The notes: generated from the letters alone by a model not told the origin. DNA of 64,000 nucleotides from Candidatus Parcubacteria bacterium (GCA_002869165.1 PKTK01000001.1:157006-221005), one strand, 5' to 3'. Positions 4,095 to 61,869 are shown, numbered from the stretch's first letter. Translations and numbers: made by a program.

Positions 4095-4139
4095 GAATTA
4101 AGAATTAAGAATTAAGAATTAAGAATTAAGAATTAAGAA
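4084..4139. repeat. tandem heptamer array (TTAAGAA x 8)
   Basis: Eight perfect head-to-tail copies, starting inside the last codons and stop of CDS 3078..4094. Confidence 0.95.
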
Positions 4140-4153
4140 TAACCTCTTTTAAT

Positions 4154-4215
4154 TGTCATTCCCGGCTGGAGTTGTGAGCGAATGCGAGCAACGGAAGGGA
4201 AGGGAATCTCGTGAA
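4154..4215 (+). repeat. copy of dispersed TGTCATTC...GGAATCTC element
   Basis: TGTCATTCCCGGCTGGAG...GGGAAGGGAATCTCGTGAA; its ends match copies at 14713, 18117 and 18256(rc). Confidence 0.8.
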
Positions 4216-4243
4216 TTGTTTTGGAACTTTATGCGTTTTATTC

Positions 4244-4276
4244 AGACCTCCGACGTCTCTGAGACGTCGGAGGTCT
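4244..4276. repeat. perfect 16+1+16 palindrome AGACCTCCGACGTCTC-T-GAGACGTCGGAGGTCT (REP-like)
   Basis: Read directly; related to the CAGACCTCCGAGGTCTG palindrome inside the RayT-like gene at 53771-53820. Confidence 0.9.
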
Positions 4277-4343
4277 TTCGTTCGTGTTATCCTTTTGTTG
4301 CTCTTGTCTGCTATATATTTATGTGAGGTGAAGACAAACAAAA

Positions 4344-4382: not shown

Positions 4383-5306
4383 TTATTTTAATCCGTATTT
4401 TTTGATATTATCATTAGCGATTTGTTGAATGTATTTGATCTGCTCTTTAGCAAGTTTGTTGTTTTCCAGTAAATGCTTGAATCTGCCTTGGGCCTTTAGA
4501 TAGTTGTCAACTTTTGGTGTTTTGGTTGGTACTTTCATTACATTTGTTAATTCACCATTTTCGTATTCTAATAAGGGATAAAGGCCGGTTTGAGCAGCTA
4601 ATTTTCCGATTTGCAGAGTCTGGTCAGGCGGAAATTTCCAACCAGGTACACAAGGGACCATGATTTGAATATAACTTGGGCCTGGGGTTTCAATGGCTTT
4701 TTTAACCTTAGCTTTGATATCTTCTAGATAGCCTACAGTGGTTTGAGCAACATAATTTAGTCTATGTGCTAAAGCGATAGCTACAATATCTTTTTTTCTA
4801 AGGTGTGAACCAATTGCATCAATGGATTTACCACTTCCAGATGGAGTAGTAGTGGTTGATGATCCCCAGGGAGTGGCAGTGGATGCTTGCATACCAGTAT
4901 TGGCATAGGCTTCATTATCATAGCAAACGTAAGTAATATCTTCACCTCTTTCCCACATACCAGAAATTAACCCGAAGCCAATGTCAAATGTTCCACCATC
5001 ACCGCCTTGGGCTAGTACTCTGGTCTTTTTTCCTTTGACTCCCTTAGAGTCAAGAGCAGCACGTACTCCAGAAGCAACCGCTGCAGCGTTTTCAAATAGT
5101 GAGTGTATCCAAGGTACGCCCCATGAACTTTCAGGATATGGAGAAGTGGTTACCTCAAGACAGCCTGTACCATTGGCTATAACTGTATTTGGCCCCATAG
5201 CTTCGATCACGGTACGAGCAGCAATCAGCTGACCACAACCCGCACAAGCTCTATGACCTGAGGCAAGTAAATGTTTTTTTGATTTAGGTTTTGTAGTTGT
5301 TGGCAT
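4383..5306 (-). CDS. porB: 2-oxoacid (pyruvate):ferredoxin oxidoreductase beta subunit (TPP-binding)
   Basis: CAGCGQ N-terminal Cys motif; TPP motif GDGGTFDIGF...YDNEAYANTG. Confidence 0.9.
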   Translation of the reverse strand: MPTTTKPKSKKHLLASGHRACAGCGQLIAARTVIEAMGPNTVIANGTGCLEVTTSPYPESSWGVPWIHSLFENAAAVASGVRAALDSKGVKGKKTRVLAQGGDGGTFDIGFGLISGMWERGEDITYVCYDNEAYANTGMQASTATPWGSSTTTTPSGSGKSIDAIGSHLRKKDIVAIALAHRLNYVAQTTVGYLEDIKAKVKKAIETPGPSYIQIMVPCVPGWKFPPDQTLQIGKLAAQTGLYPLLEYENGELTNVMKVPTKTPKVDNYLKAQGRFKHLLENNKLAKEQIKYIQQIANDNIKKYGLK

Positions 5307-5322
5307 AATATCTTTAATTTAA

Positions 5323-5425
5323 AAATTTATAATTTATAATTTGTAAACAATAATTAAATTTTTAAAATTTAAGAAATTATTAATTAAAAATTGTTTAAAA
5401 ATTATAAATTAAAAATTATAAATTT
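5323..5425. repeat. long imperfect AT-rich inverted repeat (hairpin) between porB and the DUF2283-like gene
   Basis: AAATTTATAATTTATAATTTGTAAACAATAATTAA pairs with TTAATTAAAAATTGTTTAAAAATTATAAATTAAAAATTATAAATTT. Confidence 0.7.
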
Positions 5426-5633
5426 AACTGGCTGGTATTATTTTTTTAATATCTTTTATATCTTTAATTTTATCAAATTGTCCTTTGAAGCTAGAAGCAT
5501 CAAGTATTTCTATTAGAATCGGTACACCTGTTTTTGACATGTGAATTATAATATTACCTATTTCGCGCGCATAGGATATTTCCCCCTTAGCAAGTTCTAG
5601 ACATATAATATTGGCCTCTGGATCGTAAATCAT
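5424..5633 (-). CDS. DUF2283-like small protein (candidate antitoxin)
   Basis: MIYDPEANIICLELAKGE...GVPILIEILDASSF fits the DUF2283 pattern as I recall it. Confidence 0.55.
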   Translation of the reverse strand: MIYDPEANIICLELAKGEISYAREIGNIIIHMSKTGVPILIEILDASSFKGQFDKIKDIKDIKKIIPAS

Positions 5634-5642
5634 ATTATTTAA

Positions 5643-5757
5643 TAAGCACTAAATTCTAATATCTAAATTCTAAATAATATCAAAATTCAAAATACAAATG
5701 TTTGAAACTTTAGATATTTGTGTTTTGAATTTGTTTAGAGTTTAGAATTTAGTGCTT
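5643..5757. repeat. long imperfect inverted repeat (hairpin) between the two small genes
   Basis: AAGCACTAAATTCTAA...CAAAATTCAAAATACAAAT pairs with ATTTGTGTTTTGAATTTG...TTAGAATTTAGTGCTT. Confidence 0.75.
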
Positions 5758-5764
5758 AGAGTTT

Positions 5765-5980
5765 TTACTTTACTGGATAAAAAGTAACTACTTTTTTTAA
5801 ATTACCGTGTTTCTGGTACACCACTTTGATGTTATCTTTTTTAGCTGATAAGTATTTACCTTTTTTACTGATCTTGTCAGGCATATTCAAACAATCCTCA
5901 ATTTCCTCACGCCGAAAAAACACCTTGTATTTATTCAATAGTTCAAACTTTTCTTCTGCGTATTTTGTGTAGTGGATCAT
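5765..5980 (-). CDS. DUF4258-like small protein (candidate toxin)
   Basis: 71 aa ending ...KVVYQKHGNLKKVVTFYPVK; adjacent to the DUF2283-like gene, a pairing I recall as recurrent. Confidence 0.45.
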   Translation of the reverse strand: MIHYTKYAEEKFELLNKYKVFFRREEIEDCLNMPDKISKKGKYLSAKKDNIKVVYQKHGNLKKVVTFYPVK

Positions 5981-5981
5981 A

Positions 5982-6851
5982 TTAGTGTGTAGTGTCCATG
6001 CAAACTTTTTTTACTGGATCGCAATACATTTGACTTGGACAACTATCAGAATTTTTACATTTCCTGTCCGTTTCTGTTGGAGGATGAATATCGTAGTAAC
6101 CTAGTTCCTTGTCATCTCCTATTGCATTAACTTTTTCCAAATTTAAATCTTTAAATTTTACCAAATCGGGGTTAACGATCCAAAGTAAAGTATAGGAAAA
6201 CATAGCTAAGGCTAGACCAGTTAGTGCAGCAATTATCCAGTCTTTAGCACCAGAAATCCTGGAAGCATTCCCCATGGAAGTTATCCAAATCAGACCATTT
6301 ATCATGATTATTACTGTGGCTATGATACCAACTACTCCAATAGCATACTGATAAATTGATTTTATATACTTTGCTATTGAGCTCGTGTCAGCCTTGGGTA
6401 TAAAACTTGAACTTGTATTACCACCGCTTGAGTTATTTGCTTGATTAGCAAGTTCAGCTTTTTTTTTATCACAATCTTCTTTATTAAGGGCGAATACTGT
6501 ACCATTTATATTACAATAAGTATTAATCTGGTTGTTGTTATTTTGGTTGGATGAGTCGTTACTTTCATTACTAGTATCACTGGTAACATCTGCGCTATCA
6601 GGTAGAGATGAGCCGTTATCTTCATTAGATGTGTTGTCACTAGAATCATCACTAGAATCAGGGTCCCCAGTATCCCAAGTATAGCCAGCAGCTTCGCAAG
6701 TAAGTTGAGTCCAGTTTGTTTCTGGCCCCCTGGGTGTGCCGCAATAAGCTGCTAGGACAGGTAAAAAGGGGGTAAAAGTAATATAGATTAGCAAAGATAA
6801 AAATAATGCCAATTTGAAATGTGGTATCCTGTTTTTGTTTATAATTTTCAT
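5982..6851 (-). CDS. T4SS pilin-like (VirB2/TrbC class, CPR 'T4SS_pilin' type) membrane protein with S/D/N-rich N-terminal region and Cys-containing tail
   Basis: Signal anchor; core IYQYAIGVVGIIATVIIMINGLIWITSMGNASRISGAKDWIIAALTGLALAMFSYTLLWIVNP has two TM helices around a G-N-x-x-x-I-x-x-AK loop. Confidence 0.55.
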   Translation of the reverse strand: MKIINKNRIPHFKLALFLSLLIYITFTPFLPVLAAYCGTPRGPETNWTQLTCEAAGYTWDTGDPDSSDDSSDNTSNEDNGSSLPDSADVTSDTSNESNDSSNQNNNNQINTYCNINGTVFALNKEDCDKKKAELANQANNSSGGNTSSSFIPKADTSSIAKYIKSIYQYAIGVVGIIATVIIMINGLIWITSMGNASRISGAKDWIIAALTGLALAMFSYTLLWIVNPDLVKFKDLNLEKVNAIGDDKELGYYDIHPPTETDRKCKNSDSCPSQMYCDPVKKVCMDTTH

Positions 6852-6874
6852 AGTGATTGTATTGTGAATCTATT

Positions 6875-8077
6875 TTATTTGTTAATAAATTTCATCTTAT
6901 CACCTGGTTTTTTAATTTCTACTAATATTTTATCAATCATTTTCTTGGTTATATCTTTTCCGCCTAGACCCACTATGAATGACTGAACTTTGGCCAGGGT
7001 TTCATTCTTGGCAGTGGCTTTCATGTCTAGAGCTAGAGGTCCGTCAGTGGCGCCTAGGGAAACGGCCTTTTCAAGAACTGCTACGAATTTGGCCTTTTGG
7101 ATGATTTTCAAGACTTCTTTTTCAGGGAAAGGACGGAAAGTTTTGATTTTGAGTACTCCAACTGAGTTGATGTTGAGCTTGGCTTTGAGTCCAGCGTTGT
7201 TTTCTATTTCATCAACAGCATCTTTGACTGTACCGACTAGTGAGCCCATAGCTACCAAAACTGTTGTTGGGTTCTTTGGTCCATAATATTCTATCAGGGC
7301 ATTGTTAACCTGAGCTTTCTTTTCTGACTGTTTAATAACTTCAGGAATTGCTTGTTTTAGGTTTTCGTATTCTCGTTTTAGAACTTTTTGGGAATCAACT
7401 AAGGCATCATGCAATTCTTCACGAATTTCCATGTAGTATGCTGGGGCTGCAAAAGCACCAAAACTTGCAGGATTGTCAGTATCTAGGAAGGCGCCTTTGG
7501 CTGGTTTGTAGTCAGGTAGATAGTTTTTGACCTGATTTGTACTTGGTACAGAAACTCCTTCATAAGTATGAGTTAATACAAAGCCATCAACATTTACCAT
7601 TACTGGCAATCCAACTTGCTCAGAAACTTTGTAGGCTAGTAGATGTTGCTCAACAGCTTCTTGATGATTTTCAGCAAAAAGTATTATCCAGCCAGCGTCA
7701 CGGATAGACATTGCATCTTGATGATCATTCCAGATAGTAATAGGAGCTGATACACCACGATTAGCACAGGTAAGAACTACCGGTAGTCTCATACCAGCAA
7801 TATTGTATAAAACCTCAGTCATTAGTAGTATCCCTTGGGAGCTGGTAGCAGTGTAGACTCGAACACCAGTAGCTGATGAACCAGCCACGATTGAAGCAGC
7901 AGCAAATTCGCTTTCAGCTCTAACGTATGTATATTTAGCTTTGTCATCAGCTTTAAATTTGGCTAGATCCTCCACAATATGTGTTTGTGGAGTTATTGGA
8001 TATGCTGAAATCACAGCCGGATTGATATTTTTTATTGTCTGGGCAATAGCTTGTGAGCCCTCAAGTATTTGTCTCAT
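6875..8077 (-). CDS. porA: 2-oxoacid (pyruvate):ferredoxin oxidoreductase alpha subunit
   Basis: 400 aa; N-terminal G.QAIAQ...AYPITPQT motif; adjacent to the other por subunits. Confidence 0.9.
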   Translation of the reverse strand: MRQILEGSQAIAQTIKNINPAVISAYPITPQTHIVEDLAKFKADDKAKYTYVRAESEFAAASIVAGSSATGVRVYTATSSQGILLMTEVLYNIAGMRLPVVLTCANRGVSAPITIWNDHQDAMSIRDAGWIILFAENHQEAVEQHLLAYKVSEQVGLPVMVNVDGFVLTHTYEGVSVPSTNQVKNYLPDYKPAKGAFLDTDNPASFGAFAAPAYYMEIREELHDALVDSQKVLKREYENLKQAIPEVIKQSEKKAQVNNALIEYYGPKNPTTVLVAMGSLVGTVKDAVDEIENNAGLKAKLNINSVGVLKIKTFRPFPEKEVLKIIQKAKFVAVLEKAVSLGATDGPLALDMKATAKNETLAKVQSFIVGLGGKDITKKMIDKILVEIKKPGDKMKFINK

Positions 8078-8093
8078 ATTTTATTCATTTAAA

Positions 8094-8519
8094 CATATAA
8101 ACATGTAAGCATGTAAACATTTTTATTTGGTTATTATTTTAATGATTTAATTAATTTCCAGAGCATTGCTCCTATTTCATCAGACAATTTTGCAATTTCT
8201 TGATATTCTTTGTTTGAGAAATAATTTTCAATAAAAGTAAAATGTAATAAATACTTTGATTCTTTCAGTGATCCGTATGAAATTTTCCAAAAGTATTTTT
8301 TTGTTTTGCTTTGCTTTGCTCTCTTGCAAATCCTTCAATATAATTTAGTATCACAGATAGAGAGCTTCTTCTAAGTTGTGATGTACTTCCAAACTGTTCT
8401 TCTTTTGGAAATTTTTTTGTTATTTTATAAACATCATGGGCATATTTATCCATTTTTTCTTTTAGACTAATTTGAAAATCATTCATGTTTAAATGTTTAT
8501 ATGCTTACATGTTTATATG
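8094..8519. mobile_element. inverted-repeat-bounded four-helix-bundle gene cassette (IVS-like), copy 1
   Basis: CATATAAACATGTAAGCATGTAAACAT (8094-8120) matches the reverse complement of 8493-8519 at 26/27; fills the porD-porA spacer. Confidence 0.6.
8134..8486 (-). pseudogene. four-helix-bundle protein (23S rRNA IVS-protein family), frameshifted
   Basis: N-half MNDFQISLKEKMDKYAHDVYKITKKFPKEEQFGSTSQLRRSSLSVILNYIEGFAR is in one frame and C-half ..YFWKISYGSLKESKYLLHFTFIENYF...MLWKLIKSLK is in another. Adding one base to the T7 run at 8296-8302 restores the frame. Confidence 0.75.
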
Positions 8520-8520
8520 A

Positions 8521-8811
8521 TTACTTTTTCTCTAGCTTCATTTTAATAGCTTTTACTGGGCATTCGGTGGCGCAGACTCCACAACCTTTGCAGTAGTCGT
8601 AGTCGGTGACTGGTTTTTGGCTGGCTTTATTTTTTTGCATCACTATGCATGATTCAGGGCAGGCTTTGGCGCAGGTGCCACAACCAATGCATTTTTTATA
8701 ATCAGTTTCCGGGATATAAGTGCGCCATGAACCGGTTTTGTTATTTAATGTTGAAGCAGCTTTGCTTGTTATGTCCATATTTGTATATTGATAAATAATT
8801 ATTTTTGTCAT
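8521..8811 (-). CDS. porD: 2-oxoacid:ferredoxin oxidoreductase delta subunit (2x[4Fe-4S] ferredoxin)
   Basis: CIGCGTCAKACP and CKGCGVCATECP motifs. Confidence 0.9.
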   Translation of the reverse strand: MTKIIIYQYTNMDITSKAASTLNNKTGSWRTYIPETDYKKCIGCGTCAKACPESCIVMQKNKASQKPVTDYDYCKGCGVCATECPVKAIKMKLEKK

Positions 8812-8933
8812 CTCCCTGCCTGCCGGCAGGCAGGGTAGCAGAGCAGAGCAGAGAGATTCCTTAAACGTGGTATTAGTTTAAACTGAGATATTCCCAAGAC
8901 CAAGGGATTCCTCACCTCCGGTTCGGAATGGCA
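8806..8933. repeat. composite GC-rich repeat block (TGTCATCTC...CCTTAAACG unit, 20-bp palindrome, inverted TGCCATTCCGAAC...GGAATCCC unit)
   Basis: Shares ends with the copy at 39725-39759 and the palindrome CCTGCCTGCCGGCAGGCAGG (8815-8834) with 18211-18230; overlaps the porD start codon. Confidence 0.7.
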
Positions 8934-9481: not shown

Positions 9482-9490
9482 ATTATTTAC

Positions 9491-9603
9491 AGGCTACGAA
9501 AATACGAATCTCCACTATTTGGCGGAACGAATTTACAAATCAGCTTATAACGAACACATTAAAATTATTCGTAAATTCGTACTGATTCGTATTTTCGTAG
9601 CCT
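9491..9603. repeat. hairpin repeat, GGCTACGAAAATACGAATC family, copy 1
   Basis: AGGCTACGAAAATACGAATC (9491-9510) is a perfect reverse complement of 9584-9603; inner arms ACGAATTTAC / GTAAATTCGT. Confidence 0.85.
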
Positions 9604-9646
9604 AAGTATTATTCGATGATTAGTTTTTCGTAACCAATTAAATTAT

Positions 9647-10336
9647 TTATTTTAAATGATTAATTATAGTGTCAAAATCTTCATCAGAGATAGTTCCTTT
9701 GATGACTTGGCCATTAATAAACCAAATAGGCGTGCCTAAGTTGTGAACACCAAGTTTTTGAGCATCATCAAAATCTTGTTGGATTTTGGGGATATATTTT
9801 TTTGAATCAAAACATGATCCAAATTTTTCCATATCAACTCCGACTTGTTTAGCAAGAGTATATATTTCTTGTTTCTCCTTGACTCCTTGTTTTATAAAGA
9901 GTTTGTCATGCATTTGCCAAAATAACTCCTGCTCACCAGCACATCTTGCTGCCAGGGCCAGATCAAGTGAATAATCATGTACAATCGGTAGATCTCTCCA
10001 GATGTATTTTACCTTGTCATTATATAATGTACTTATCTCTCTGATCTTTTGAAATGAAGCTTTGCAGTAAGGACAGGAAAAATCAGCAAATTCAACTATT
10101 ACAATCTGAGCATCATCGGCACCTATAGAGTGATTACTACCATCTCCTAAAATTAACTTTTCCGCATCCAAAATGTTTTCTTCAAGTCCTGGACTTAACA
10201 GGGTTTTTTCCAGTTTACTTGATTCTAAAAATGTATTCAGTACCAACGAAGCTAGAAATATCAGAAATATTATAAAAAAAGCTTTGGAAAAAAATTTAAA
10301 AAAGGCCAATAATGATTGTTTGGAATTATTTGTCAT
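9647..10336 (-). CDS. membrane-anchored DsbA-family thiol:disulfide oxidoreductase
   Basis: N-terminal TM segment; thioredoxin-fold active site FSCPYCKAS. Confidence 0.8.
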   Translation of the reverse strand: MTNNSKQSLLAFFKFFSKAFFIIFLIFLASLVLNTFLESSKLEKTLLSPGLEENILDAEKLILGDGSNHSIGADDAQIVIVEFADFSCPYCKASFQKIREISTLYNDKVKYIWRDLPIVHDYSLDLALAARCAGEQELFWQMHDKLFIKQGVKEKQEIYTLAKQVGVDMEKFGSCFDSKKYIPKIQQDFDDAQKLGVHNLGTPIWFINGQVIKGTISDEDFDTIINHLK

Positions 10337-10407: not shown

Positions 10408-10545
10408 ATGAATAGGCCAAATTTTGACAATCTAGAAAAAGATGTTTTGAAAAAAAGCCAAAAAAGGGATAAAAAAGGAAAAAAAACAATGAAGGTAAGT
10501 GGTGTTAAAGTAAAGAATTTGCAAAGAATTATTAAGGAAAAATAA
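10408..10545 (+). CDS. possible small basic protein (45 aa)
   Basis: ATG..TAA ORF MNRPNFDNLEKDVLKKSQKRDKKGKKTMKVSGVKVKNLQRIIKEK, read by hand; below the ORF-track cut-off; no homology recognised. Confidence 0.2.
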   Translation: MNRPNFDNLEKDVLKKSQKRDKKGKKTMKVSGVKVKNLQRIIKEK

Positions 10546-10547
10546 AC

Positions 10548-10595
10548 TGTTAAATGGTTAAATTGTTAAGTTATTAGCAATTTAGCCATTTAACA
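10548..10595. repeat. gene-less hairpin of the GTTAAA.GTTAAATTGTT arm family
   Basis: TGTTAAATGGTTAAATTG (10548-10565) matches the reverse complement of 10578-10595 at 17/18; same arm family as cassette 3 (41626/42033). Confidence 0.8.
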
Positions 10596-10609
10596 ATTTA
10601 TTATTTTAT

Positions 10610-12370: not shown

Positions 12371-12815
12371 AATTAAAAATTAAGAATTAAAAATTAAAAG
12401 TATTGCATGGAAGATAATGTTATCAAGAAAAAGTCTTTTGATTTTTCTGTTAGAATAGTAAAGGGGTATAAATATTTAACTACTAAAAAACGAGAGTTTG
12501 TTTTGTCAAAACAGTTATTACGAAGTGGTACCTCAATAGGAGCAAATATCGAAGAAGCAATAGGCGGTCAATCAAGAAAAGATTTTATTTCGAAATTTTC
12601 AATAGCATATAAAGAAGCCAGAGAGAGTAAATATTGGATAAGACTTTTAAGGGAAGTAAATTATTTAACTGAAGAGCAGGCAGAATCATTGCTTGATGAT
12701 TGTGATGAAATATGTAAAATAATTTCAAGCATATTAATAAGCAGTAAAAACAAAGATAATTGAAATTTTAAGAACTGAGAATTAATTCTTAATTTTTAAT
12801 TCTTAATTTTTAATT
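12371..12815. mobile_element. inverted-repeat-bounded four-helix-bundle gene cassette (IVS-like), copy 2
   Basis: AATTAAAAATTAAGAATTAAAAATTAA (12371-12397) matches the reverse complement of 12789-12815 at 27/27. Confidence 0.65.
12407..12763 (+). CDS. four-helix-bundle protein (23S rRNA intervening-sequence protein family)
   Basis: KSFDFSVRIVKGYKYL...LSKQLLRSGTSIGANIEEA.G.QSRKDFISKFSIAYKEARESKYWIRLL is the typical family pattern. Confidence 0.85.
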   Translation: MEDNVIKKKSFDFSVRIVKGYKYLTTKKREFVLSKQLLRSGTSIGANIEEAIGGQSRKDFISKFSIAYKEARESKYWIRLLREVNYLTEEQAESLLDDCDEICKIISSILISSKNKDN

Positions 12816-14014: not shown

Positions 14015-16780
14015 ATGGATAAATATAACCCAAATAAAATTGAGTCGAAATGGCAGGAAAAATGGGCTCGCGATAAGGAATATGTAAGAAAAGAGAATGA
14101 AAGAGAAAAGTATTATATGCTTGATATGTTTCCCTATCCATCAGGGGATGGTCTTCATATGGGGCATACCGAATCATATACTGCATCAGACATTATTTAT
14201 AGATATAAGAGGTTAAATGGTTTTAATGTTTTACACCCACAGGGCTTTGACTCTTTTGGTTTACCGGCTGAGAATTATGCTATTAAAACTGGTGTGCATC
14301 CAAAAGTTACTACAGAGAAAAATGCTGCTAATTATATTGTACAGATGAAGATGCTTGGACTTGGGCATGACTTGGAAAATATGGTTTATACTTCAAGACC
14401 AGATTATTACAGATGGACACAATTTTTGTTCGCCAAGTTTTTTGAGGGAGGTTTGGTAGAGCGCAAGACCGATACAATTAATTGGTGTCCGAGTTGTAAT
14501 ACTGGCATTGCTAACGAGCAAGTAGAGGACTCTAAATGTGAGCGTTGTGGTACAGAGATTGAACAGAAAGAAATTCCTGGCTGGTTTTTTAAGATTACTG
14601 ATTTCGCAGATGAATTGATTGAAGGCTTAGATAAAATTGACTGGCCAGAGCATACAAAGAAGAATCAGCGGAATTGGATTGGGAAAAGTGAAGGAGCGAA
14701 GATAAAATTCTCTGTCATTCCTGGCAAGCGAAGCGAGGGAAAGGAATCTCGTGAAGAAGAGTCTCTTGAAGTTTTTACTACTCGACCGGATACGCTTTTT
14801 GGCGCAACTTATATGGTGATAGCACCTGAGCATCAACTGATTGCAAATACTAAACAACAAATAACAAATTACAAAGAAGTTGAGGAATATATTCAGAAAG
14901 CAAAAAATAAGACTGAGATGGAGAGGCAGGAGAATAAAGAAAAGACTGGGATAAAGATTGAGGGCCTTAAGGCAATTAATCCTGCAACAAATGAGGAGAT
15001 ACCTATTTTTGTGGCTGACTATGTTCTCGGGGGCTATGGTACAGGTGCGATTATGGCTGTACCAGCTCATGATGCTAGAGATTATGAGTTTGCAATTAAG
15101 TTTAATCTGCCTATTAAACAAGTGGTGGCACCTTTTTGGCAAGCAGAGAATGACTGGTATGACGCTGTACGAGAGGATTTGGAAACTGTTGAGCGAAGAC
15201 TGGTTTATGCTTTGGTTAAAAATCCAAAAGACAATAAAGTTTTACTTTTAAAATGGCCTGGATATAATACCCATACATTTATAGTTGGGGGAGTAGAAGA
15301 AGGGGAAGATCTTGTAGAGGCTGCTCGAAGAGAAGTCCTGGAAGAGACGGGTTATAAAAATTTAAAATTGATCAAGGAATATAATGATGAGGTGCATGTT
15401 AAATATTGCGCAGTTCATAAGAATCAAAATAGATATGCCATGGCCAAATGTATTCAATTTGAACTAGAAGATGAAGAAAGAACAAAAGTGAGTGATGATG
15501 AAAAAGCTAAACATGAAGCTCTTTGGGTGACTGAAGAAGAGGCTGAAAAACTGCTTGAATACAAAAATTTTACATATTTTTGGCAGATGTACAAAAAAGG
15601 AGAAGAAGTCTTTGTGGGTAATGGAAATATTATTAATTCAGGAGATTTTAATGGTTTAGATGTAACTGAAGCTAAAGAAAAAATAACCAAATTTGTAGGT
15701 GGTGAAATGACAGCGACTTATCGTTTGCGTGATTGGTCTATGTCTCGGCAGAGGTATTGGGGTGCTCCCATTCCTATAGTTTATTCACCAGAAGGCGAAG
15801 CTAAGTATGTTGGGGATGAGAATTTGCCCTGGCTGTTGCCTGAAGATGTTGATTTTGTGCCAACTGGTGAGTCGCCACTTAAACTTTCAAAAGAGTTACT
15901 CGAGCGAACTGAAAAAATCTTTGGTAAAGGATGGACTCCAGAAGTTGATACTATGGATACCTTTGTTTGTTCTTCTTGGTATTTTTTGCGCTATCCCGAT
16001 ACAAAGAATGAACAAGAGTATTGTTCAGAAGAGAAATTGAAGGATTGGTTGCCGGTTGATTTTTATATTGGTGGTCCTGAGCATACCTATATGCACCTTC
16101 TATATGCAAGGTTTTGGGTCAAGGCTATGCACAGGCTTGGCATGATAGATTTTGACGAGCCTTTTATGAAGCTTCGCCATCAGGGTATGGTCCTTGATAA
16201 GCAAGGTGTTAAAATGAGTAAGTCAAAGGGGAATGTAGTAAACCCAAATGATATGGTGAGCCAGTTCGGCGCTGATGCCACTCGTTTATATATGATGTTT
16301 GCAGGTCCCCTGGAAGATGATGTGATGTGGAATGAGGAAGGAGTGAAAGGTGTTTATCGTTTTTTAGAGAAAACTTGGAAAGTTTTTAATGAAATTGAAA
16401 TGATTGATTGTGGACCTGATTGTAGGGGGGTTGATGAAGCTATTCTAGGCCTTTACCATAAGACAATTAAAAAGGTTACAGATGATATTGAAAATATTAG
16501 TTTCAATACAGCAATTTCAGCGATGATGATATTTGTTAATGAATGTTTGAAACAGGAAAAATTACCAGCTCCTGCCATGAAAAACTTTTTAATTTTATTA
16601 TCTCCATACGCTCCTCATATTACCGAAGAATTGTGGGTAAAAATGGGAGGAAAGGGTAGCATATTTAATGCTAAGTGGCCAAAGTATGATGAGGCAATGT
16701 TGAAAGACGAGCTGATCAAAATTGTTGTACAGGTGAATGGGAAGCTTCGTGATACTTTGGAGGTGGATGCAGATATTTAA
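14015..16780 (+). CDS. leuS: leucine--tRNA ligase with embedded Nudix domain; the frame continues past the TAA at 16778 to 16897
   Basis: HMGH and KMSKS motifs, TTRPDTLFGATYMVIAPEH, YRLRDWSMSRQRYWG; the conserved C-terminal tail lies after the in-frame stop. Confidence 0.9.
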   Translation: MDKYNPNKIESKWQEKWARDKEYVRKENEREKYYMLDMFPYPSGDGLHMGHTESYTASDIIYRYKRLNGFNVLHPQGFDSFGLPAENYAIKTGVHPKVTTEKNAANYIVQMKMLGLGHDLENMVYTSRPDYYRWTQFLFAKFFEGGLVERKTDTINWCPSCNTGIANEQVEDSKCERCGTEIEQKEIPGWFFKITDFADELIEGLDKIDWPEHTKKNQRNWIGKSEGAKIKFSVIPGKRSEGKESREEESLEVFTTRPDTLFGATYMVIAPEHQLIANTKQQITNYKEVEEYIQKAKNKTEMERQENKEKTGIKIEGLKAINPATNEEIPIFVADYVLGGYGTGAIMAVPAHDARDYEFAIKFNLPIKQVVAPFWQAENDWYDAVREDLETVERRLVYALVKNPKDNKVLLLKWPGYNTHTFIVGGVEEGEDLVEAARREVLEETGYKNLKLIKEYNDEVHVKYCAVHKNQNRYAMAKCIQFELEDEERTKVSDDEKAKHEALWVTEEEAEKLLEYKNFTYFWQMYKKGEEVFVGNGNIINSGDFNGLDVTEAKEKITKFVGGEMTATYRLRDWSMSRQRYWGAPIPIVYSPEGEAKYVGDENLPWLLPEDVDFVPTGESPLKLSKELLERTEKIFGKGWTPEVDTMDTFVCSSWYFLRYPDTKNEQEYCSEEKLKDWLPVDFYIGGPEHTYMHLLYARFWVKAMHRLGMIDFDEPFMKLRHQGMVLDKQGVKMSKSKGNVVNPNDMVSQFGADATRLYMMFAGPLEDDVMWNEEGVKGVYRFLEKTWKVFNEIEMIDCGPDCRGVDEAILGLYHKTIKKVTDDIENISFNTAISAMMIFVNECLKQEKLPAPAMKNFLILLSPYAPHITEELWVKMGGKGSIFNAKWPKYDEAMLKDELIKIVVQVNGKLRDTLEVDADI
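14713..14755 (+). repeat. in-frame copy of the TGTCATTC...GGAATCTCGTGAA element inside leuS
   Basis: TGTCATTCCTGGCAAGCGAAGCGAGGGAAAGGAATCTCGTGAA; both ends match the intergenic copy at 4154-4215; encodes VIPGKRSEGKESRE. Confidence 0.75.
15128..15612 (+). other. Nudix hydrolase domain inserted in LeuRS
   Basis: Perfect Nudix box G-GVEEG-E-DLVEAAR-REVLEETGY at 15287-15355. Confidence 0.75.
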
Positions 16781-16930
16781 GAAGAAGAGATTAAAAAGCT
16801 TGCTTTAGAGTCTGAGAAGGTTGAGAAATGGACTGCTGGCAAGGAGATTAAGAAAGTTATATATGTGAAGGGGAAGTTGGTAAGCGTGGTTGTGTAGTTT
16901 TATAAAATGTATAGACTACAAAAATACTTG

Positions 16931-17028
16931 GGCTACGAAAATACGAATCTATACGAATTTACGAATAATTTTGATATGTTCGTGATGAACAGATTCGTAA
17001 ATTCGTACTTATTCGTATTTTTGTAGCC
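16931..17028. repeat. hairpin repeat, GGCTACGAAAATACGAATC family, copy 2
   Basis: 36-nt arms GGCTACGAAAATACGAATCTATACGAATTTACGAAT and the reverse complement of 16993-17028, about 32/36 matches. Confidence 0.85.
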
Positions 17029-17037
17029 TAAAGATGT

Positions 17038-18060
17038 ATGAAAAATATAGTTACAATTGGTGGAGGGACAGGTAGTTTTACTTTGCTTAATGGGCTCAAG
17101 AACTACAATGTTGATATTTCAGCGATTGTAACCATGGCCGATGATGGTGGTTCTACTGGTATTTTGCGAGATGAATTGGGCGTTTTACCTCCCGGAGATG
17201 TCAGACAATGCCTGGTAGCTTTGTCTGAGTCTAGCGATACTTTGAGGAGGCTTATGAATTATCGTTTTGAGAAAGGTGGTTTAAAAGGGCATAATTTTGG
17301 TAATTTACTGCTTTCTACGCTTGAGATGACTGAAGGTAGTTTTTTTGATGGTTTGCAGGTTGCTTCGAAAATATTAAACATCAAAGGCAAAGTAGTTCCT
17401 GTGAGTGAATCAAAGATGCATTTAGCAATCGAACTCAAAAATAACCAAGTAATGAATGGTGAATCTAACCTAGATGATTCAGAGGAAATTCGCAAAATTG
17501 GAGTGAAAAAGGTTTATTTAAGCCCAAGAGTTAAAACTAGTAAGTTGGCAATTGAAACAATTCATTCAGCTGACTTGATAGTAATAGGACCAGGAGATCA
17601 CTACGGTTCGATTGTGCCTAACTTAATAACTGATGGAATAAGTTCAGCTATAGAAAAATCAAAAGCTAAGCTTGTCTATGTTTGTAATCTGACAAACAAA
17701 AAAGGACAAACTGACGATTTTGATAAGGATGATTATGTTCGGTCTATTAATTCATACTTTGGAAGAGATGTTGTAGATTATTGTTTGGTTCCTACAGGTA
17801 CAGCTCCAAAGGAATTGGTGGAGAGGTATGAAAGGAAAGAAGGCGAGGGTTCGGTAATTGATTTTAAAGATATAAAAAAGAAGAACAGGTCATACAAAAT
17901 AATAAAAGCCAAAATATTAAAATCAAATAAGGAAAAAAATCGCAGACTTTTTTCAGTCGGGCATTCATCGTTTATTAGACATGATAGTGTTTTGCTAGCT
18001 AAGGCAGTTATTGAGATATTGGAAAGCTTGGAAGGGCAGGTAATAAAGGAGGTAATTTAA
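17038..18060 (+). CDS. YvcK/CofD-family (UPF0052) gluconeogenesis-factor-like protein
   Basis: IVTIGGGTGSFTLLNGLK...TMADDGGSTGILRDELGVLPPGDVRQCLVALS. Confidence 0.8.
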   Translation: MKNIVTIGGGTGSFTLLNGLKNYNVDISAIVTMADDGGSTGILRDELGVLPPGDVRQCLVALSESSDTLRRLMNYRFEKGGLKGHNFGNLLLSTLEMTEGSFFDGLQVASKILNIKGKVVPVSESKMHLAIELKNNQVMNGESNLDDSEEIRKIGVKKVYLSPRVKTSKLAIETIHSADLIVIGPGDHYGSIVPNLITDGISSAIEKSKAKLVYVCNLTNKKGQTDDFDKDDYVRSINSYFGRDVVDYCLVPTGTAPKELVERYERKEGEGSVIDFKDIKKKNRSYKIIKAKILKSNKEKNRRLFSVGHSSFIRHDSVLLAKAVIEILESLEGQVIKEVI

Positions 18061-18116: not shown

Positions 18117-18256
18117 TGTTATTCCCGGCTGGAGCTACTTAATCCTTAGGCATAAACTCCGAGTAGGGGAAGGGGATCTTGTCAGTTCTAATCTTTGCGA
18201 GATTCCCTTCCCTGTCTGCCGGCAGGCAGGCCTCCCTTCGGTCGCCGGGAATGACA
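18117..18256. repeat. composite hairpin built from two inverted TGTCATTCCCGGC... elements plus a 20-bp palindrome
   Basis: TGTTATTCCCGGCTGGAG (18117-) and GCCGGGAATGACA (-18256) are inverted; GGGGAAGGGGATCT / AGATTCCCTTCCC inner arms; CCTGTCTGCCGGCAGGCAGG at 18211-18230. Confidence 0.8.
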
Positions 18257-18260
18257 GAAG

Positions 18261-18307
18261 GTGTTATGTGATACATGTTGTATGATATGTGAAAAACGTG
18301 TTATAAT
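18261..18307 (+). promoter_or_regulatory. promoter module GTGTTATGTG-N11-ATGATATGTG-N6-GTGTTATAAT
   Basis: -10 TATAAT at 18302-18307, 33 nt upstream of ATG 18340, with AGAGGA SD between; same architecture at 21404-21451 on the minus strand. Confidence 0.5.
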
Positions 18308-39686: not shown

Positions 39687-39700
39687 GAATTAAAAATTAA
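39674..39700. repeat. solo copy (27/27) of the cassette-2 arm
   Basis: AATTAAAAATTAAGAATTAAAAATTAA is identical to 12371-12397; overlaps the last codons and stop of CDS 38676..39686; no inverted partner nearby. Confidence 0.85.
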
Positions 39701-39724
39701 GAATTAAGAACATCTCTCATCAAT

Positions 39725-41606: not shown

Positions 41607-41625
41607 ATTAGTAAATGACTACATT

Positions 41626-42033
41626 GTTAAAGTGTTAAATTGTTTATGGAAAGCAAGTTTTTGATGTTAGGAGATTTAAACTCTTATTGTATTTCTTTTG
41701 GATTGTCAAATTATGTTTGGGGTGTTGTGGTTAATTGGGATAATTTTAGCAAGATAACAGTAGGGAAGCAATTTGTTAGGTCTGTAGATTCGATTTCAGC
41801 AAATACTGCAGAAGGTTTTGGCCGTTACAATAAGAAAGATAAAATAAAATTTTATAGATATAGCTTTGGCTCAGTAAAAGAATCTTTAGATTGGAATCAA
41901 AAAGCATTTTCAAGAAATTTGATAAACAAACAAGCGCATAGCCATATATATCATGAGCTTGATAAAATGCCAAAAAGAGATAAATTCATTAATTAAATAT
42001 ACTAACCAAAAATTAACAATTTAACAGTTTAAC
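41626..42033. mobile_element. inverted-repeat-bounded four-helix-bundle gene cassette (IVS-like), copy 3
   Basis: GTTAAAGTGTTAAATTGTT (41626-41644) matches the reverse complement of 42015-42033 at 18/19. Confidence 0.6.
41646..41996 (+). CDS. four-helix-bundle protein (23S rRNA IVS-protein family)
   Basis: ATG at 41646 preferred over the track's TTG at 41640; GKQFVRSVDSISANTAEGFGRYNKKDKIKFYRYSFGSVKESLDW is the family pattern. Confidence 0.8.
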   Translation: MESKFLMLGDLNSYCISFGLSNYVWGVVVNWDNFSKITVGKQFVRSVDSISANTAEGFGRYNKKDKIKFYRYSFGSVKESLDWNQKAFSRNLINKQAHSHIYHELDKMPKRDKFIN

Positions 42034-42045
42034 TATTTATATAAA

Positions 42046-46614: not shown

Positions 46615-47960
46615 TGTCCAAAGAACTTAAAAAAATATTTTCTTGCAATAATTGCGGCGCCCAATTTCCTAAATGGAGTGGGCGTTGTTTGGAATGCGGA
46701 ACTTGGGGATCTTTAGAAGAAGAGATTGCTTCAAAGAAAAATACAAGCAGCGAAAAAGTTGAAGCAATAGATCTTAAGAACCTAGACAATATTCCAGATG
46801 AAAATTTATCTAGAATGAAGATAGGAGTAACAGAGGTTGATAGAGTTTTCGGTGGGGGAATAGTACCTGGTTCGCTTATTCTTCTTTCTGGTGAGCCAGG
46901 AGTAGGCAAATCAACTATACTTGCACAAATAACTGGCAGAGTAGCTAAAAGTTACAAGGATGAGGAATATCCAGTGATATATATAAGTGGTGAAGAATCA
47001 GCTCCTCAGGTAAAATCTCGCTTCAAAAGATTGAAAGGAGATTTGTCTAAAGTTTTTTTTGAATCAGTTACTAGTATTGAAAAAGTTGTAGCTACCGCCA
47101 AAAAGCATAAACCAAAACTTTTGATTATAGACTCTGTGCAAACTGTGCATAGTGATATGGTGCCTAGTGAGACTGGTAGTATAAATCAAATTAGAGCTGT
47201 AACTGTGAGTTTGTTGGAATTGGCAAAGCAAAATAACATATCTGTTATTATTGTCGGACATATAACCAAGGATGGACAAGTAGCAGGACCAAAGTCACTT
47301 GAGCACATTGTTGATGCTGTAATAAATCTTGAGCATGATTCTTCCAATCAATATCGAATTTTGCGTGCTTCTAAAAATAGATTTGGCTCTGTGAATGAAA
47401 TTGGAATATTTGAAATGACTGCTCAAGGTTTTGTGGAAATAAAAAATCCTAGCCTCGCATTTGCTTCTGATGAAAATGGACAAGTTTCAGGGTCTGTTGT
47501 GGCCTGTATTATGGAAGGAAGTAGACCTTTTATGGTGGAGGTACAAGCTTTGGTTGCTAAAACAGTTTTTGGCTATCCACAAAGAAAAGCATCTGGTTAT
47601 GATCTGAACCGCCTGCAAGTTTTAAGCGCGGTATTGCAAAAAAAGGCCGGGCTAAACTTAACAAATCAAGATATTATAATAAATATAGTCGGCGGTTTAA
47701 AAGTTAATGATACTTCATTGGATTTAGCAGTATGCGCTGCAGTTATTTTGTCTTTGGCTGGGAGTAGTTTGAAACAAAAAACTTTGTTTATTGGCGAGGT
47801 TGGTTTAGGAGGAGAAATTAGACCAGTTTCTAGAATGAATGAGAGGGTAGAAGAGGCCAAAAGACTTGGATTTAAAGAAATTTATATTCCTAAAAATACT
47901 AAAACCAAACAAGGAATAATGATCGATTCACTGGAAAATCTGAAAAGCGAATTGATATAA
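46614..47960 (+). CDS. radA: DNA repair protein RadA/Sms
   Basis: Zn-ribbon CNNCGAQFPKWSGRCLECGTWGS, Walker A GEPGVGKST, KNRFG, Lon-like C-domain; start overlaps the upstream stop (TAATG). Confidence 0.9.
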   Translation: MSKELKKIFSCNNCGAQFPKWSGRCLECGTWGSLEEEIASKKNTSSEKVEAIDLKNLDNIPDENLSRMKIGVTEVDRVFGGGIVPGSLILLSGEPGVGKSTILAQITGRVAKSYKDEEYPVIYISGEESAPQVKSRFKRLKGDLSKVFFESVTSIEKVVATAKKHKPKLLIIDSVQTVHSDMVPSETGSINQIRAVTVSLLELAKQNNISVIIVGHITKDGQVAGPKSLEHIVDAVINLEHDSSNQYRILRASKNRFGSVNEIGIFEMTAQGFVEIKNPSLAFASDENGQVSGSVVACIMEGSRPFMVEVQALVAKTVFGYPQRKASGYDLNRLQVLSAVLQKKAGLNLTNQDIIINIVGGLKVNDTSLDLAVCAAVILSLAGSSLKQKTLFIGEVGLGGEIRPVSRMNERVEEAKRLGFKEIYIPKNTKTKQGIMIDSLENLKSELI

Positions 47961-47963
47961 ATA

Positions 47964-47999
47964 AGCTACAAAAATACAAATCTATACGAATTTACAAAT
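47964..47999. repeat. solo degenerate arm of the GGCTACGAAAATACGAATC family
   Basis: AGCTACAAAAATACAAATCTATACGAATTTACAAAT versus the 16931-16966 arm; no inverted partner found. Confidence 0.7.
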
Positions 48000-48204
48000 T
48001 AGTTTTTGTCATCTTTGGTCTCTATAATGATGCAAAAGAAAACCAGGAATCAATCGTTTTATTTAAGAAGAATCTTAGATTTTTTTTAAGTAATGCTTCA
48101 GAATCCAGAAAGACAAAAATGCATGATTCAAAATTTTTAATGATTTGTGGTATTGTAGCTTTTTGTAATACTATTGAAAAATTATTTAAAATTAGCTACA
48201 ATAT

Positions 48205-53594: not shown

Positions 53595-54092
53595 ATGAAA
53601 TACGAAGGAGGGTATTATCATGTTTATAATCGAGGAGTTGACAAGAGAAAGGTTTTTAATACAGAAAAAGATTATAAGAGGTTTTTGCAATCGTTGATAG
53701 AGTTTAATACGGTAAATCCAATAGGTAGCATTAGAGAAGTTAATAGATATAAAGTCTTAGAAAATAGCACCGTTTCCAGACCTCCGAGGTCTGCAGATGC
53801 AGACCTCGGAGGTCTGGAAACTACGGTTTCTTTAGTTAAGATATATGCATATTGTTTATTGCCAAATCATTTTCATTTATTGGTCAAAGAAGAGCAAGAG
53901 AAAGGTGTTGGTAGGTTTATGAGTAAGGTTGGGAATGGTTATACAAAATATTTTAACATTATCAACAACCGCTCGGGTTTTTTATTTCAAGGCAAGTACA
54001 AAAAGAAATTGATTGACAATGAAAATTATCTTGCGTATTTAACTGCTTATATAAATTGTAATTCTGAGATTCACGAAATAAAAAAGGCATAA
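53595..54092 (+). CDS. IS200/RayT-like HUH (Y1) transposase family protein; the frame continues past the TAA at 54090 to 54272
   Basis: YHVYNRG, LLPNHFHLLV (HUH), YLAYLTAYINCN (catalytic Tyr region); the family-typical W.WSS..DYL follows the stop in frame. Confidence 0.7.
   Translation: MKYEGGYYHVYNRGVDKRKVFNTEKDYKRFLQSLIEFNTVNPIGSIREVNRYKVLENSTVSRPPRSADADLGGLETTVSLVKIYAYCLLPNHFHLLVKEEQEKGVGRFMSKVGNGYTKYFNIINNRSGFLFQGKYKKKLIDNENYLAYLTAYINCNSEIHEIKKA
53771..53820. repeat. 50-nt nested palindrome inside the RayT-like CDS
   Basis: GTTTCCAGACCTCCGAGGTCTGCA-GA-TGCAGACCTCGGAGGTCTGGAAAC, perfect 24-nt arms. Confidence 0.9.
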
Positions 54093-61583: not shown

Positions 61584-61656
61584 GTGTCATTCTGAGCAGA
61601 GTGGAGGATCTTGTAAATAACGGGATTTTTCACTCCGCTCAGAATGACACTTTTTT
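61584..61656 (+). terminator. hairpin made of two inverted GTGTCATTCTGAGC elements plus a T-run, probable parB terminator
   Basis: GTGTCATTCTGAGCAGAG (61584-61601) matches the reverse complement of 61633-61650 at 17/18; TTTTTT follows. Confidence 0.65.
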
Positions 61657-61779: not shown

Positions 61780-61869
61780 GAAGTATCATGTAAGCATGTA
61801 GGCAAGTAAATGTATAAGTAATTTAGAAAATTATTTAAGAAATGTGTTAAATGTTTTAGTATTTTAAAT

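Follow-up and report, generated by a model that had tools for sequence, protein, structure and literature searches.

The stretch of DNA analysed here (the window) comprises 64,000 nucleotides of a Candidatus Parcubacteria bacterium (GCA_002869165.1 PKTK01000001.1:157006-221005). Its por operon, in which porG, porD, porA and porB were confirmed by Pfam, carries between porD and porA a 434-bp unit with a gene of the four-helix-bundle (4HB) family enclosed by inverted arrays of tandem octamers. The features of the locus are the following.

9481-8939, minus strand: porG
8521-8811, minus strand: porD (delta subunit, 2x[4Fe-4S]), upstream host gene
8491-8523, minus strand: 5' arm of the unit (por mRNA sense), tandem octamers CATATAAA CATGTAAG CATATAAA CATTTAAA
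8265-8486, minus strand: 4HB gene, N-terminal frame, ATG 8486-8484, 73 codons, premature TGA 8267-8265
8296-8319: frameshift zone, T7 (8296-8302), G, T, (TTTGC)3 at 8305-8319; GCAAA three times on the mRNA
8134-8328, minus strand: 4HB gene, C-terminal part in the -1 frame, natural stop TAA 8136-8134
8090-8122, minus strand: 3' arm, 31/33 complementary to the 5' arm
8074-8088, minus strand: four-codon upstream open reading frame (uORF) AUGAAUAAAAUAUGA, read from the sequence
6875-8077, minus strand: porA (alpha subunit), downstream host gene
5306-4383, minus strand: porB

The unit fills the porD-porA spacer and is bounded by two 33-nt arms, which are 94% complementary and lie 368 nt apart; a second pairing register of the arms was found at 8086-8113 / 8484-8511. 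A first-pass annotation of the window had bounded the unit by 27-nt arms (8094-8120 and the reverse complement of 8493-8519), placed 1 nt from porD and 16 nt from the porA ATG. These distances and the 26/27 match of this core were confirmed, and the repeat was found to extend to 33 nt; the porD stop TAA (8523-8521) makes up the first three bases of the extended 5' arm, and the gap from the 3' arm to the porA ATG is 12 nt. The arms are built of tandem octamers (CATTTAAA CATATAAA CATGTAAG CATGTAAA CAT), with four 8-nt units in the 5' arm, which ends 4 nt ahead of the ATG of the 4HB gene. On the other side the uORF (first base 8088, arm end 8090) starts within the eight bases past the last full octamer, and its UGA overlaps the porA AUG (AUGA). 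With up to three mismatches allowed, an arm 19-mer occurred seven times in the window (0.02 expected), six of these matches being the cassette arms themselves in shifted registers.

When the unit was folded as RNA of the por strand, the terminal stem was present in both the minimum-free-energy and the centroid structure (z = -4.6); folding as DNA gave z = -5.7, and in neither case did any of 100 shuffles fold as well. The GC content of the cassette is 24%, that of porA 40% and that of the window 34.5%. A chance inverted repeat was rejected on the excess of the arm 19-mer, the fold relative to shuffles and the family-wide flank repeats described below. An integron cassette was likewise rejected (no attC-like single site, no integrase); nor is a nuclease, recombinase or transposase encoded within the unit. 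An Rfam search of the unit gave no match. The absence of a Shine-Dalgarno motif at the 4HB and downstream genes was dropped as an argument, the motif being present in only about 5% of the background open reading frames (ORFs) of these genomes by the same test.

The enclosed gene is split between two frames (8486 to 8265 and 8328 to 8134), as the first-pass annotation had it, so an intact ORF of its family is not present here. When one T was added to the T7 run, a product of 117 aa was obtained, which matched PF05635 (23S_rRNA_IVP; E = 5.8e-25, 88 bits, cutoff 33.8) and TIGR02436 (four helix bundle protein; E = 1.2e-26, 93 bits, cutoff 24). Among solved structures, XCC0516 (PDB 2GSC, E = 1e-9), a homopentamer of four-helix bundles (PMC4990558), came closest. 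More than 3600 homologues were found, the best being 72-74% identical and 115-118 aa long; the best-matching ones with names come from Patescibacteria (Falkowbacteria, Andersenbacteria, Moranbacteria). The family motif R-x3-S-x3-N-x2-E (described in PMC3936711) is present as QLRRSSLSVILNYIEG, and across the two sides of the break 39 of 39 family-invariant residues are retained. Matches of the protein to PF22296 and NF033474 were below threshold. The Avd protein (bAvd) of diversity-generating retroelements (DGRs) has a homologous four-helix-bundle fold; identity with it was rejected at 39 bits for the repaired product against the NF033474 equivalog cutoff of 80, and neither a DGR reverse transcriptase nor template/variable repeats were found beside the 4HB gene among the ORFs scanned, its neighbours being por genes.

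The frameshift in the four-helix-bundle gene

The first-pass annotation had placed the break at the homopolymer and had proposed that one T added to T7 restores a family-typical protein. The addition does yield a full-length ORF of the PF05635/TIGR02436 family, but the product is not typical of that family: it retains a two-residue insertion that was seen in 0/24 aligned homologues and 0/117 homologues with a measurable loop. The loop between EGFAR and FW is 8 residues long in 117 of 120 top homologues and 10 residues long in none. In the DNA alignment all 12 of the closest cassettes showed a 5-nt gap relative to the window at the frameshift zone, which makes the difference a net +5 nt in or beside (TTTGC)3, and a homopolymer loss is not the best reading of it. 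Repair by -5 nt (one GCAAA unit taken off the mRNA) gave a gap-free protein of 115 aa, a size within the family range of about 115-120 aa, with an 8-residue loop (..FAREQSKTKKYFWKISYG..). The exact location of the extra 5 nt within the zone cannot be fixed; most simply, one TTTGC unit would have been added by a one-step slippage duplication. Two 5-mers repeated three times occur in the whole window, and the one that lies inside a gene is the (TTTGC)3 at the lesion.

Within the window 91 other A/T runs of at least 7 nt sit in 47 intact ORFs, one of them of 2560 codons, and the assembly is therefore taken to be low in homopolymer indel error. Since, in addition, the net change is +5 nt, a homopolymer miscall is an unlikely cause, and a real slippage mutation is the more likely one. 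The frameshift is considered likely to be real, and it would be recent, given that neither side of the break has lost any of the 39 family-invariant residues. The same conservation would be expected if the gene were intact in the cell and the frameshift were an assembly or consensus error, an explanation also favoured by the rarity of disrupted 4HB copies (about 1 in 100 in the sample) and by the low complexity of the lesion (T7 plus pentamer repeat). It is nevertheless held to be unlikely: the difference from the family is +5 nt and not +/-1 nt, the long A/T runs elsewhere are intact, and exact-protein look-ups of porA and porD together with an exact DNA search of the lesion region in metagenomes returned no second copy of the locus for comparison. 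Recoding, whether through ribosomes slipping by -1 on A_AAA_AAU (mRNA 8302-8296 plus U) or through transcriptional slippage on A7, would give some full-length 117-aa protein. The zero-frame heptamer fits the canonical X XXY YYZ, and a -1 shift on it yields exactly the +1-repaired protein; a downstream stimulatory structure is not evident, though, the loop length of the product matches no homologue and no homologue uses such a slip site, so that recoding is regarded as very improbable.

The cassette family and the occupants of the porD-porA junction

A discrete 4HB cassette bounded by inverted repeats and inserted between porD and porA, as proposed in the first-pass annotation, is supported by these data, and by tblastn and hidden Markov model searches it is one of three in the window, the other two being intact.

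12371-12815, plus strand: intact sister cassette, 27-nt perfect arms 12371-12397 / 12789-12815 (AATTAAAAATTAAGAATTAAAAATTAA)
12407-12763, plus strand: its 4HB gene, 118 aa, intact
41620-42039, plus strand: intact sister cassette, 28-nt arms 41620-41647 / 42012-42039, 86% (..TTGTTAAAGTGTTAAATTGTT..)
41646-41996, plus strand: its 4HB gene, intact
61787-61870, plus strand: decayed ORF-less remnant, CATGTAAG CATGTAGG CAAGTAAA ... TGTTAAATG TTTTAGTA TTTTAAATG

The arms of the sister cassettes have other sequences and the same periodic build as those of the porD-porA cassette. Cassette 12371-12815 is flanked by a DUF2207 gene and an exonuclease-III-like gene, cassette 41620-42039 by a 572-aa ORF and a PrgI-like gene, each pair being co-oriented. 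A solo motif noted earlier at 61787-61800, upstream of dnaE, is real and belongs to the decayed arm pair of the remnant, whose closing TTTAAATG provides the dnaE ATG at 61868-61870.

A family sample of 82 non-identical cassettes was compiled from the window, the por loci and 80 metagenome loci of the window subfamily (4HB alignment scan, 56-70% identity). The flank inverted repeat scored above the 99th percentile of shuffles in 79% of the 82 (median score 15 vs 8), and autocorrelation of the arms peaked at lag 8 (0.64), followed by lag 7 (0.49); an ATG-anchored logo of the octamer was blurred by variable register. Units were typically 390-490 bp long; the 5' arm followed the upstream stop at a median distance of ~6 nt, the next start followed the 3' arm at a median of ~8 nt, and in about a quarter of the cassettes a host stop or start codon lay inside an arm. 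Neighbours were on the same strand in 76/78 cases upstream and 62/69 downstream. The closest relatives (59-70% aa identity) use the window octamer, CATNTAAA or CATNTTAA, and more distant lineages use other units. Own arms gave a duplex energy of -26.7 kcal/mol, cross pairs -13.8 kcal/mol; within one subfamily the own-arm match was 14.4 and that to other members' arms 9.1 (Wilcoxon p = 4e-11), from which it follows that the two arms of a unit evolve in concert. The 4HB protein of the family is under purifying selection (median dN/dS 0.14 over 29 pairs). None of the 80 metagenome loci carried por genes; their 147 neighbour proteins fell into 82 clusters, often of type IV pilus genes, and cassette pairs up to 87-89% identical in the ORF had unrelated flanks on one or both sides. 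The 4HB alignment scan of viral contigs gave no relatives. At seven loci (L085, L089, L094, L099, L100, L102, L107) of the window cassette's subfamily, a downstream pilin gene starts (ATGAATAAGGG.., MNKGFTLIE) inside the final octamer of the 3' arm; ATGAATAA also follows the 3' arm in the window, there as the four-codon uORF overlapping the porA start.

Comparison of the por operons of relatives, which had been suggested as a check, revealed presence and absence of such units at the same junction. A porA search of Patescibacteria genomes returned 80 loci (best 81% identity), of which 70 allowed the length of the porD-porA spacer to be determined. This length was trimodal: 0-50 nt in 26/70; 65-237 nt in 34/70, mostly one long hairpin without an ORF; and 439-548 nt in 10/70, nine of these with a 4HB gene and one (L006) with a GIY-YIG gene between GC-rich arms. 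In relatives, further 4HB genes, without exception on the por strand, were located ahead of porG, in the porA-porB interval and past porB. The cassettes of relatives at the porD-porA junction belong to at least five 4HB lineages with at most 40% mutual identity or none detectable, while the porA proteins of the same genomes are 61-77% identical, and the window cassette is orthologous to none of them. Filled and empty junctions were found at high relatedness (475 nt in L026 vs 28-35 nt in L003-5, 86% porA nucleotide identity), as were hairpin and empty ones (a 144-nt hairpin in L040 vs 1 nt in L041, 91% porA nucleotide identity), and the solo hairpins of L023 and L077 share the arm motif TTTCTAAATTATAATTTCTAA with the full cassettes of L002 and L026. 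These comparisons show that the same por junction was colonised repeatedly, and on sequence relationships the cassette lineage of the window appears to have come to it independently of the occupants in relatives.

A tblastn search of plasmids returned 4HB genes mostly from Nostocales and also from Bacteroidota, Bacillota and Chloroflexota. Eleven plasmid loci spanning Cyanobacteriota, Bacteroidota, Bacillota and Chloroflexota were sampled, and in 10 of them the 4HB gene was flanked by inverted tandem-heptamer arrays scoring above all 100 shuffles. The arms of Nostoc flagelliforme, (CAATTCG)4.7 / (CGAATTG)4.7, are perfect over 33 nt; other heptamer units are (TAATTCG)n in Dolichospermum, (AATCGTA)n in Planktothrix and (TAGTGAT)n in Bernardetia. 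The genes sit inside operons, between hsdS and hsdR, helicase and methylase, DUF1156 and Swt1-HEPN, or cas2 and cas1, the last copy being antisense to its neighbours. This suggests that many of the reported associations of 4HB genes with defence systems are insertions of this cassette type; 23S_rRNA_IVP genes between cas genes have been interpreted as an association (PMC3936711; PMC10910872). Plasmids L161-L170 come from Nostoc, Dolichospermum, Planktothrix, Gloeocapsa, Euhalothece, Bernardetia, Monoglobus and Chlorohelix, with 4HB genes in restriction-modification, helicase/methylase and CRISPR adaptation operons. In the Nostoc comparison L167/L174 vs L172/L173 the cassette stands in place of ~250 nt of a small Cys/His-rich ORF, unannotated and present in the sister plasmids, and is not a clean insertion.

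Other hairpins and repeats of the window and of por spacers

Hairpins without an ORF lie at 9490-9660 (minus), 16895-17049 and 47960-48164 (loop 137 nt), with 40-57-nt arms of TACGAAAA/TACGAATC-type octamers; those at 9490-9660 and 16895-17049 are ~95% alike including the loop and look like copies of the type of miniature inverted-repeat transposable elements (MITEs). In L012, L014 and L019 the por spacers are occupied by ACGAAT-type arms akin to these. The ~1.57-kb gap between porA and porB (region 4383-6874) encodes a 289-aa secreted protein at 5982-6851, with a weak match to a pilin of type IV secretion systems, and holds two long AT-rich periodic hairpins (5314-5427, 5643-5764). As this gap is filled as well, the por operon is interrupted at more than one junction.

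The unit at L006 4432-4979, in which GC-rich inverted arms (TTGTCATCTCGACCGAGCGAAGCGAG.. / GTGTCATTCTGAGC.. / TGTCATTGCGAGG..) enclose a GIY-YIG gene (~110 aa, Pfam E = 5e-14), represents a second cassette class. ORF-less hairpins with similar GC-rich arms occur in the window at 61584-61650, ~18120-18290 and ~4150-4330, and in the porD-porA spacers of nine relatives (L013, L021, L029, L036, L047, L056, L062, L067, L073). A GC-rich palindrome, CCCTGCCTGCCGGCAGGCAGGG, lies at 8815-8836 in the porG-porD spacer beside (AGCAG)3 and recurs at ~18214 in the window and in por spacers of L056 and L058.

Solo tandem arrays of GAATTAAG/GAATTAAA at 4095-4140 and 39687-39711 consist of the arm unit of cassette 12371 and lack an inverted partner in their vicinity; this unit also makes up the 28-35-nt por spacers of L003-5 that count as 'empty'. 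A hairpin with 32-nt arms (10538-10605, ..CTGTTAAATGGTTAAATTGTTAA..) occupies the divergent spacer ahead of the DUF2207 gene, with units like those of the arms of cassette 41620. A perfect palindrome with 24-nt arms, GTTTCCAGACCTCCGAGGTCTGCA / TGCAGACC.., is located at 53772-53821, inside or at the edge of an ORF, and a related AGACCTCCGACGTCT palindrome in a spacer at ~4243-4276. Leucyl-tRNA synthetase (14015-16780) carries a NUDIX domain inserted at residues 395-513, past the editing domain (Pfam E = 3e-13).

Known systems, competing explanations and significance

The closest known counterpart is the intervening sequence (IVS) of 23S rRNA. Elements of the S23p type are characterised as units of about 0.4-0.75 kb that RNase III excises from the primary transcript with no religation. 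In Coxiella the length is 428-444 nt; a terminal stem of 28 bp closes a loop that holds an S23p ORF, and 2-3 tandem heptamers GACAGAT, of strain-variable copy number, immediately precede the ATG. The RNase III cut falls in mid-stem, where the first repeat begins, and the authors, who report GC under that of the genome, call the element selfish and its mobility unknown (PMC4990558). With the IVSs of Coxiella and Leptospira the window unit shares the PF05635 family, its length, a terminal stem of ~28-33 bp with the ORF as loop, 7-8-nt tandem repeats before the ATG, GC lower than that of the host, a patchy spread suggesting horizontal transfer, and the existence of copies with a decayed ORF and a kept stem. 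It differs in lying between protein genes of an operon and not in helix 25 or 45 of 23S rRNA; the window contains no rRNA (Rfam: tRNA-Leu alone). In addition, the genome holds several copies with differing arm sequences, the dN/dS of the cassette family is 0.14 whereas the Coxiella ORF is reported to be unexpressed and decaying (PMC4990558), and processing by RNase III, known for the Coxiella IVS, is proposed for the window unit by analogy. In an rRNA survey of the candidate phyla radiation, 23S_rRNA_IVP and GIY-YIG ORFs were found in non-intron insertions (10.1101/2024.02.27.582315), and these are the two cargo types of relatives' por spacers.

The short tandemly repeated repetitive (STRR) elements of cyanobacteria are also similar. 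Heptamer hairpins of this kind lie between the co-transcribed hupS and hupL genes, with function unknown (PMC2670836), and also inside the RNase P RNA gene (Vioque 1997 as cited in PMC4046671). Inverted arrays of tandem short units that could form a hairpin between genes of one operon are found in the window unit as well, with a period of 8 nt instead of 7 and in another phylum; the ORF-less hairpins of the window and of relatives' por spacers look like STRR hairpins, and the 4HB genes on plasmids of Nostoc, Dolichospermum, Planktothrix, Gloeocapsa and Euhalothece are flanked by STRR-like arrays. In the papers searched, no link between STRRs and the 4HB gene was found; STRR hairpins may derive from cassettes. 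Repetitive extragenic palindromes (REPs), bacterial interspersed mosaic elements (BIMEs) and MITEs resemble the cassettes as short inverted-repeat elements of operon spacers with multi-copy ORF-less forms (9490-9660, 16895-17049), but the full cassette carries a conserved non-transposase ORF and its arms are periodic and lineage-specific, and no RAYT or transposase partner was identified. Set beside DNA transposons and MITEs, the unit has inverted termini, the filled/empty pairs revealed no discernible target-site duplication, and no transposase is encoded. Within open-access text no paper on 4HB cassettes with periodic inverted arms in operon spacers was found; the unit belongs to a variant of the S23p IVS that is widespread and apparently had not been described.

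The region 8090-8523 is very probably an IVS-type 4HB cassette. The fuller proposal, that it is a promoter-less selfish S23p/4HB element living in a transcribed operon spacer and acting by the following mechanism, is favoured with somewhat less assurance. The cassette would lack a promoter of its own and depend on read-through from the host operon, being co-transcribed within the porG-porD-porA message. Its inverted 8-nt repeat arrays would pair into a ~33-bp stem with the 4HB gene looped out, which would bring the porD stop beside the porA start. By analogy with the Coxiella and Leptospira IVSs, RNase III would cut the stem, free the cassette RNA and separate porGD, cassette and porA(B) RNAs; whether por mRNA is processed in this way is rated as about an even chance. 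In the window copy the net +5-nt change would have just inactivated the 4HB gene, and this copy may be on its way to the ORF-less hairpin state common in the same spacer of relatives. Both the consequences for por expression and the way in which the element moves are inferred.

Several observations weigh against this proposal. The sister cassettes have terminal stems, but the folding z-scores of the whole units were not significant, and RNase III was not found in the scanned part of the window. An RNase III stem by itself does not account for the 8-nt periodicity of the arms; slippage growth of the stem, recognition by a pentamer, or stop and start codons in all three frames (conceivable because 8 is not a multiple of 3) are possibilities. 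No target-site duplication or clean empty site was resolved in L026 vs L003-5, L040 vs L041/L039 or Nostoc L167/L174 vs L172/L173. The derivation of hairpins from cassettes is based on shared arm motifs (L023/L077 vs L002/L026), and coding remnants of the 4HB gene were not detected in ORF-less hairpins, except for a weak match in L033 (E = 0.04). The orientation bias could reflect the direction of replication rather than transcription. Finally, stem mismatches on the sense strand showed no excess of wobble pairs (A.C 58 vs G.U 48); as this count gives no sign of RNA-level selection, the pairing might be just as relevant in DNA.

This last point also speaks for a mobile element acting at the DNA level, in which the arms would be terminal arrays of 7-8-bp binding sites, or a cruciform or single-stranded DNA hairpin, that either the pentameric 4HB protein or a recombinase in trans would recognise, any RNA stem or RNase III cleavage being incidental. 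Such an element would explain an arm periodicity (lag-8 autocorrelation 0.64) that pairing alone does not require and a repeat unit that varies by lineage with both arms changing together; folding is no less significant for DNA than for RNA, homologues are homopentameric (2GSC; PMC4990558), and the ~95% alike hairpins at 9490-9660 and 16895-17049 suggest mobilisation in trans. Yet the unit encodes no nuclease or recombinase, no target-site duplication was seen, co-orientation with host genes and exact placement between stop and start fit dependence on host transcription, and for the homologous rRNA elements processing at the RNA level has been demonstrated (PMC4990558); this explanation is considered unlikely. 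Still less probable is a domesticated operon device, a stem kept by the host for mRNA processing, stability or translational coupling, as proposed for the STRR hairpins at hupS/hupL, with the 4HB gene as dispensable cargo. It would fit the ORF-less 65-237-nt hairpins in 34/70 relatives, the juxtaposition of the porD stop and porA start by the stem, the four-codon uORF just past the 3' arm that overlaps the porA AUG, a broken 4HB gene between arms that stay 94% complementary, and the described STRR hairpins between co-transcribed genes (PMC2670836). Against it, 26/70 relatives have a 0-50-nt spacer and no hairpin, the occupants of the junction are unrelated (differing arm types, some of them GC-rich hairpins of the GIY-YIG type), which looks like repeated colonisation, and the 4HB protein is under strong purifying selection elsewhere. 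A broader idea unites S23p rRNA IVSs, STRR hairpins and the hairpins and cassettes of Patescibacteria spacers as one class of mobile element, in which the pentameric 4HB protein, encoded by the sole gene of the element, would recognise the tandem 7-8-nt repeats of its own arms (about one per subunit) and so mediate maintenance or movement in transcribed, structured RNA or DNA without a conventional transposase; it is offered as a doubtful conjecture.

If the selfish IVS-type cassette proposed here is the correct explanation, the S23p/IVS element, known since the early 1990s only from 23S rRNA, would be at home in transcribed spacers generally and could be recognised by a 4HB gene flanked on both sides by inverted 7-8-nt repeat arrays. 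There would then be a simple reason for the 4HB genes in CRISPR-cas, restriction-modification and metabolic operons that have been read as functional partners (PMC3936711, PMC10910872), and a link to the unexplained STRRs of cyanobacteria, in which the processing model is directly testable by genetics and with RNase III mutants. For Patescibacteria, annotation would be affected, with host stop and start codons lying inside arms (the porD TAA, and the dnaE ATG in the remnant), and the expression of the subunits should be influenced by a long double-stranded RNA stem midway along the por message.

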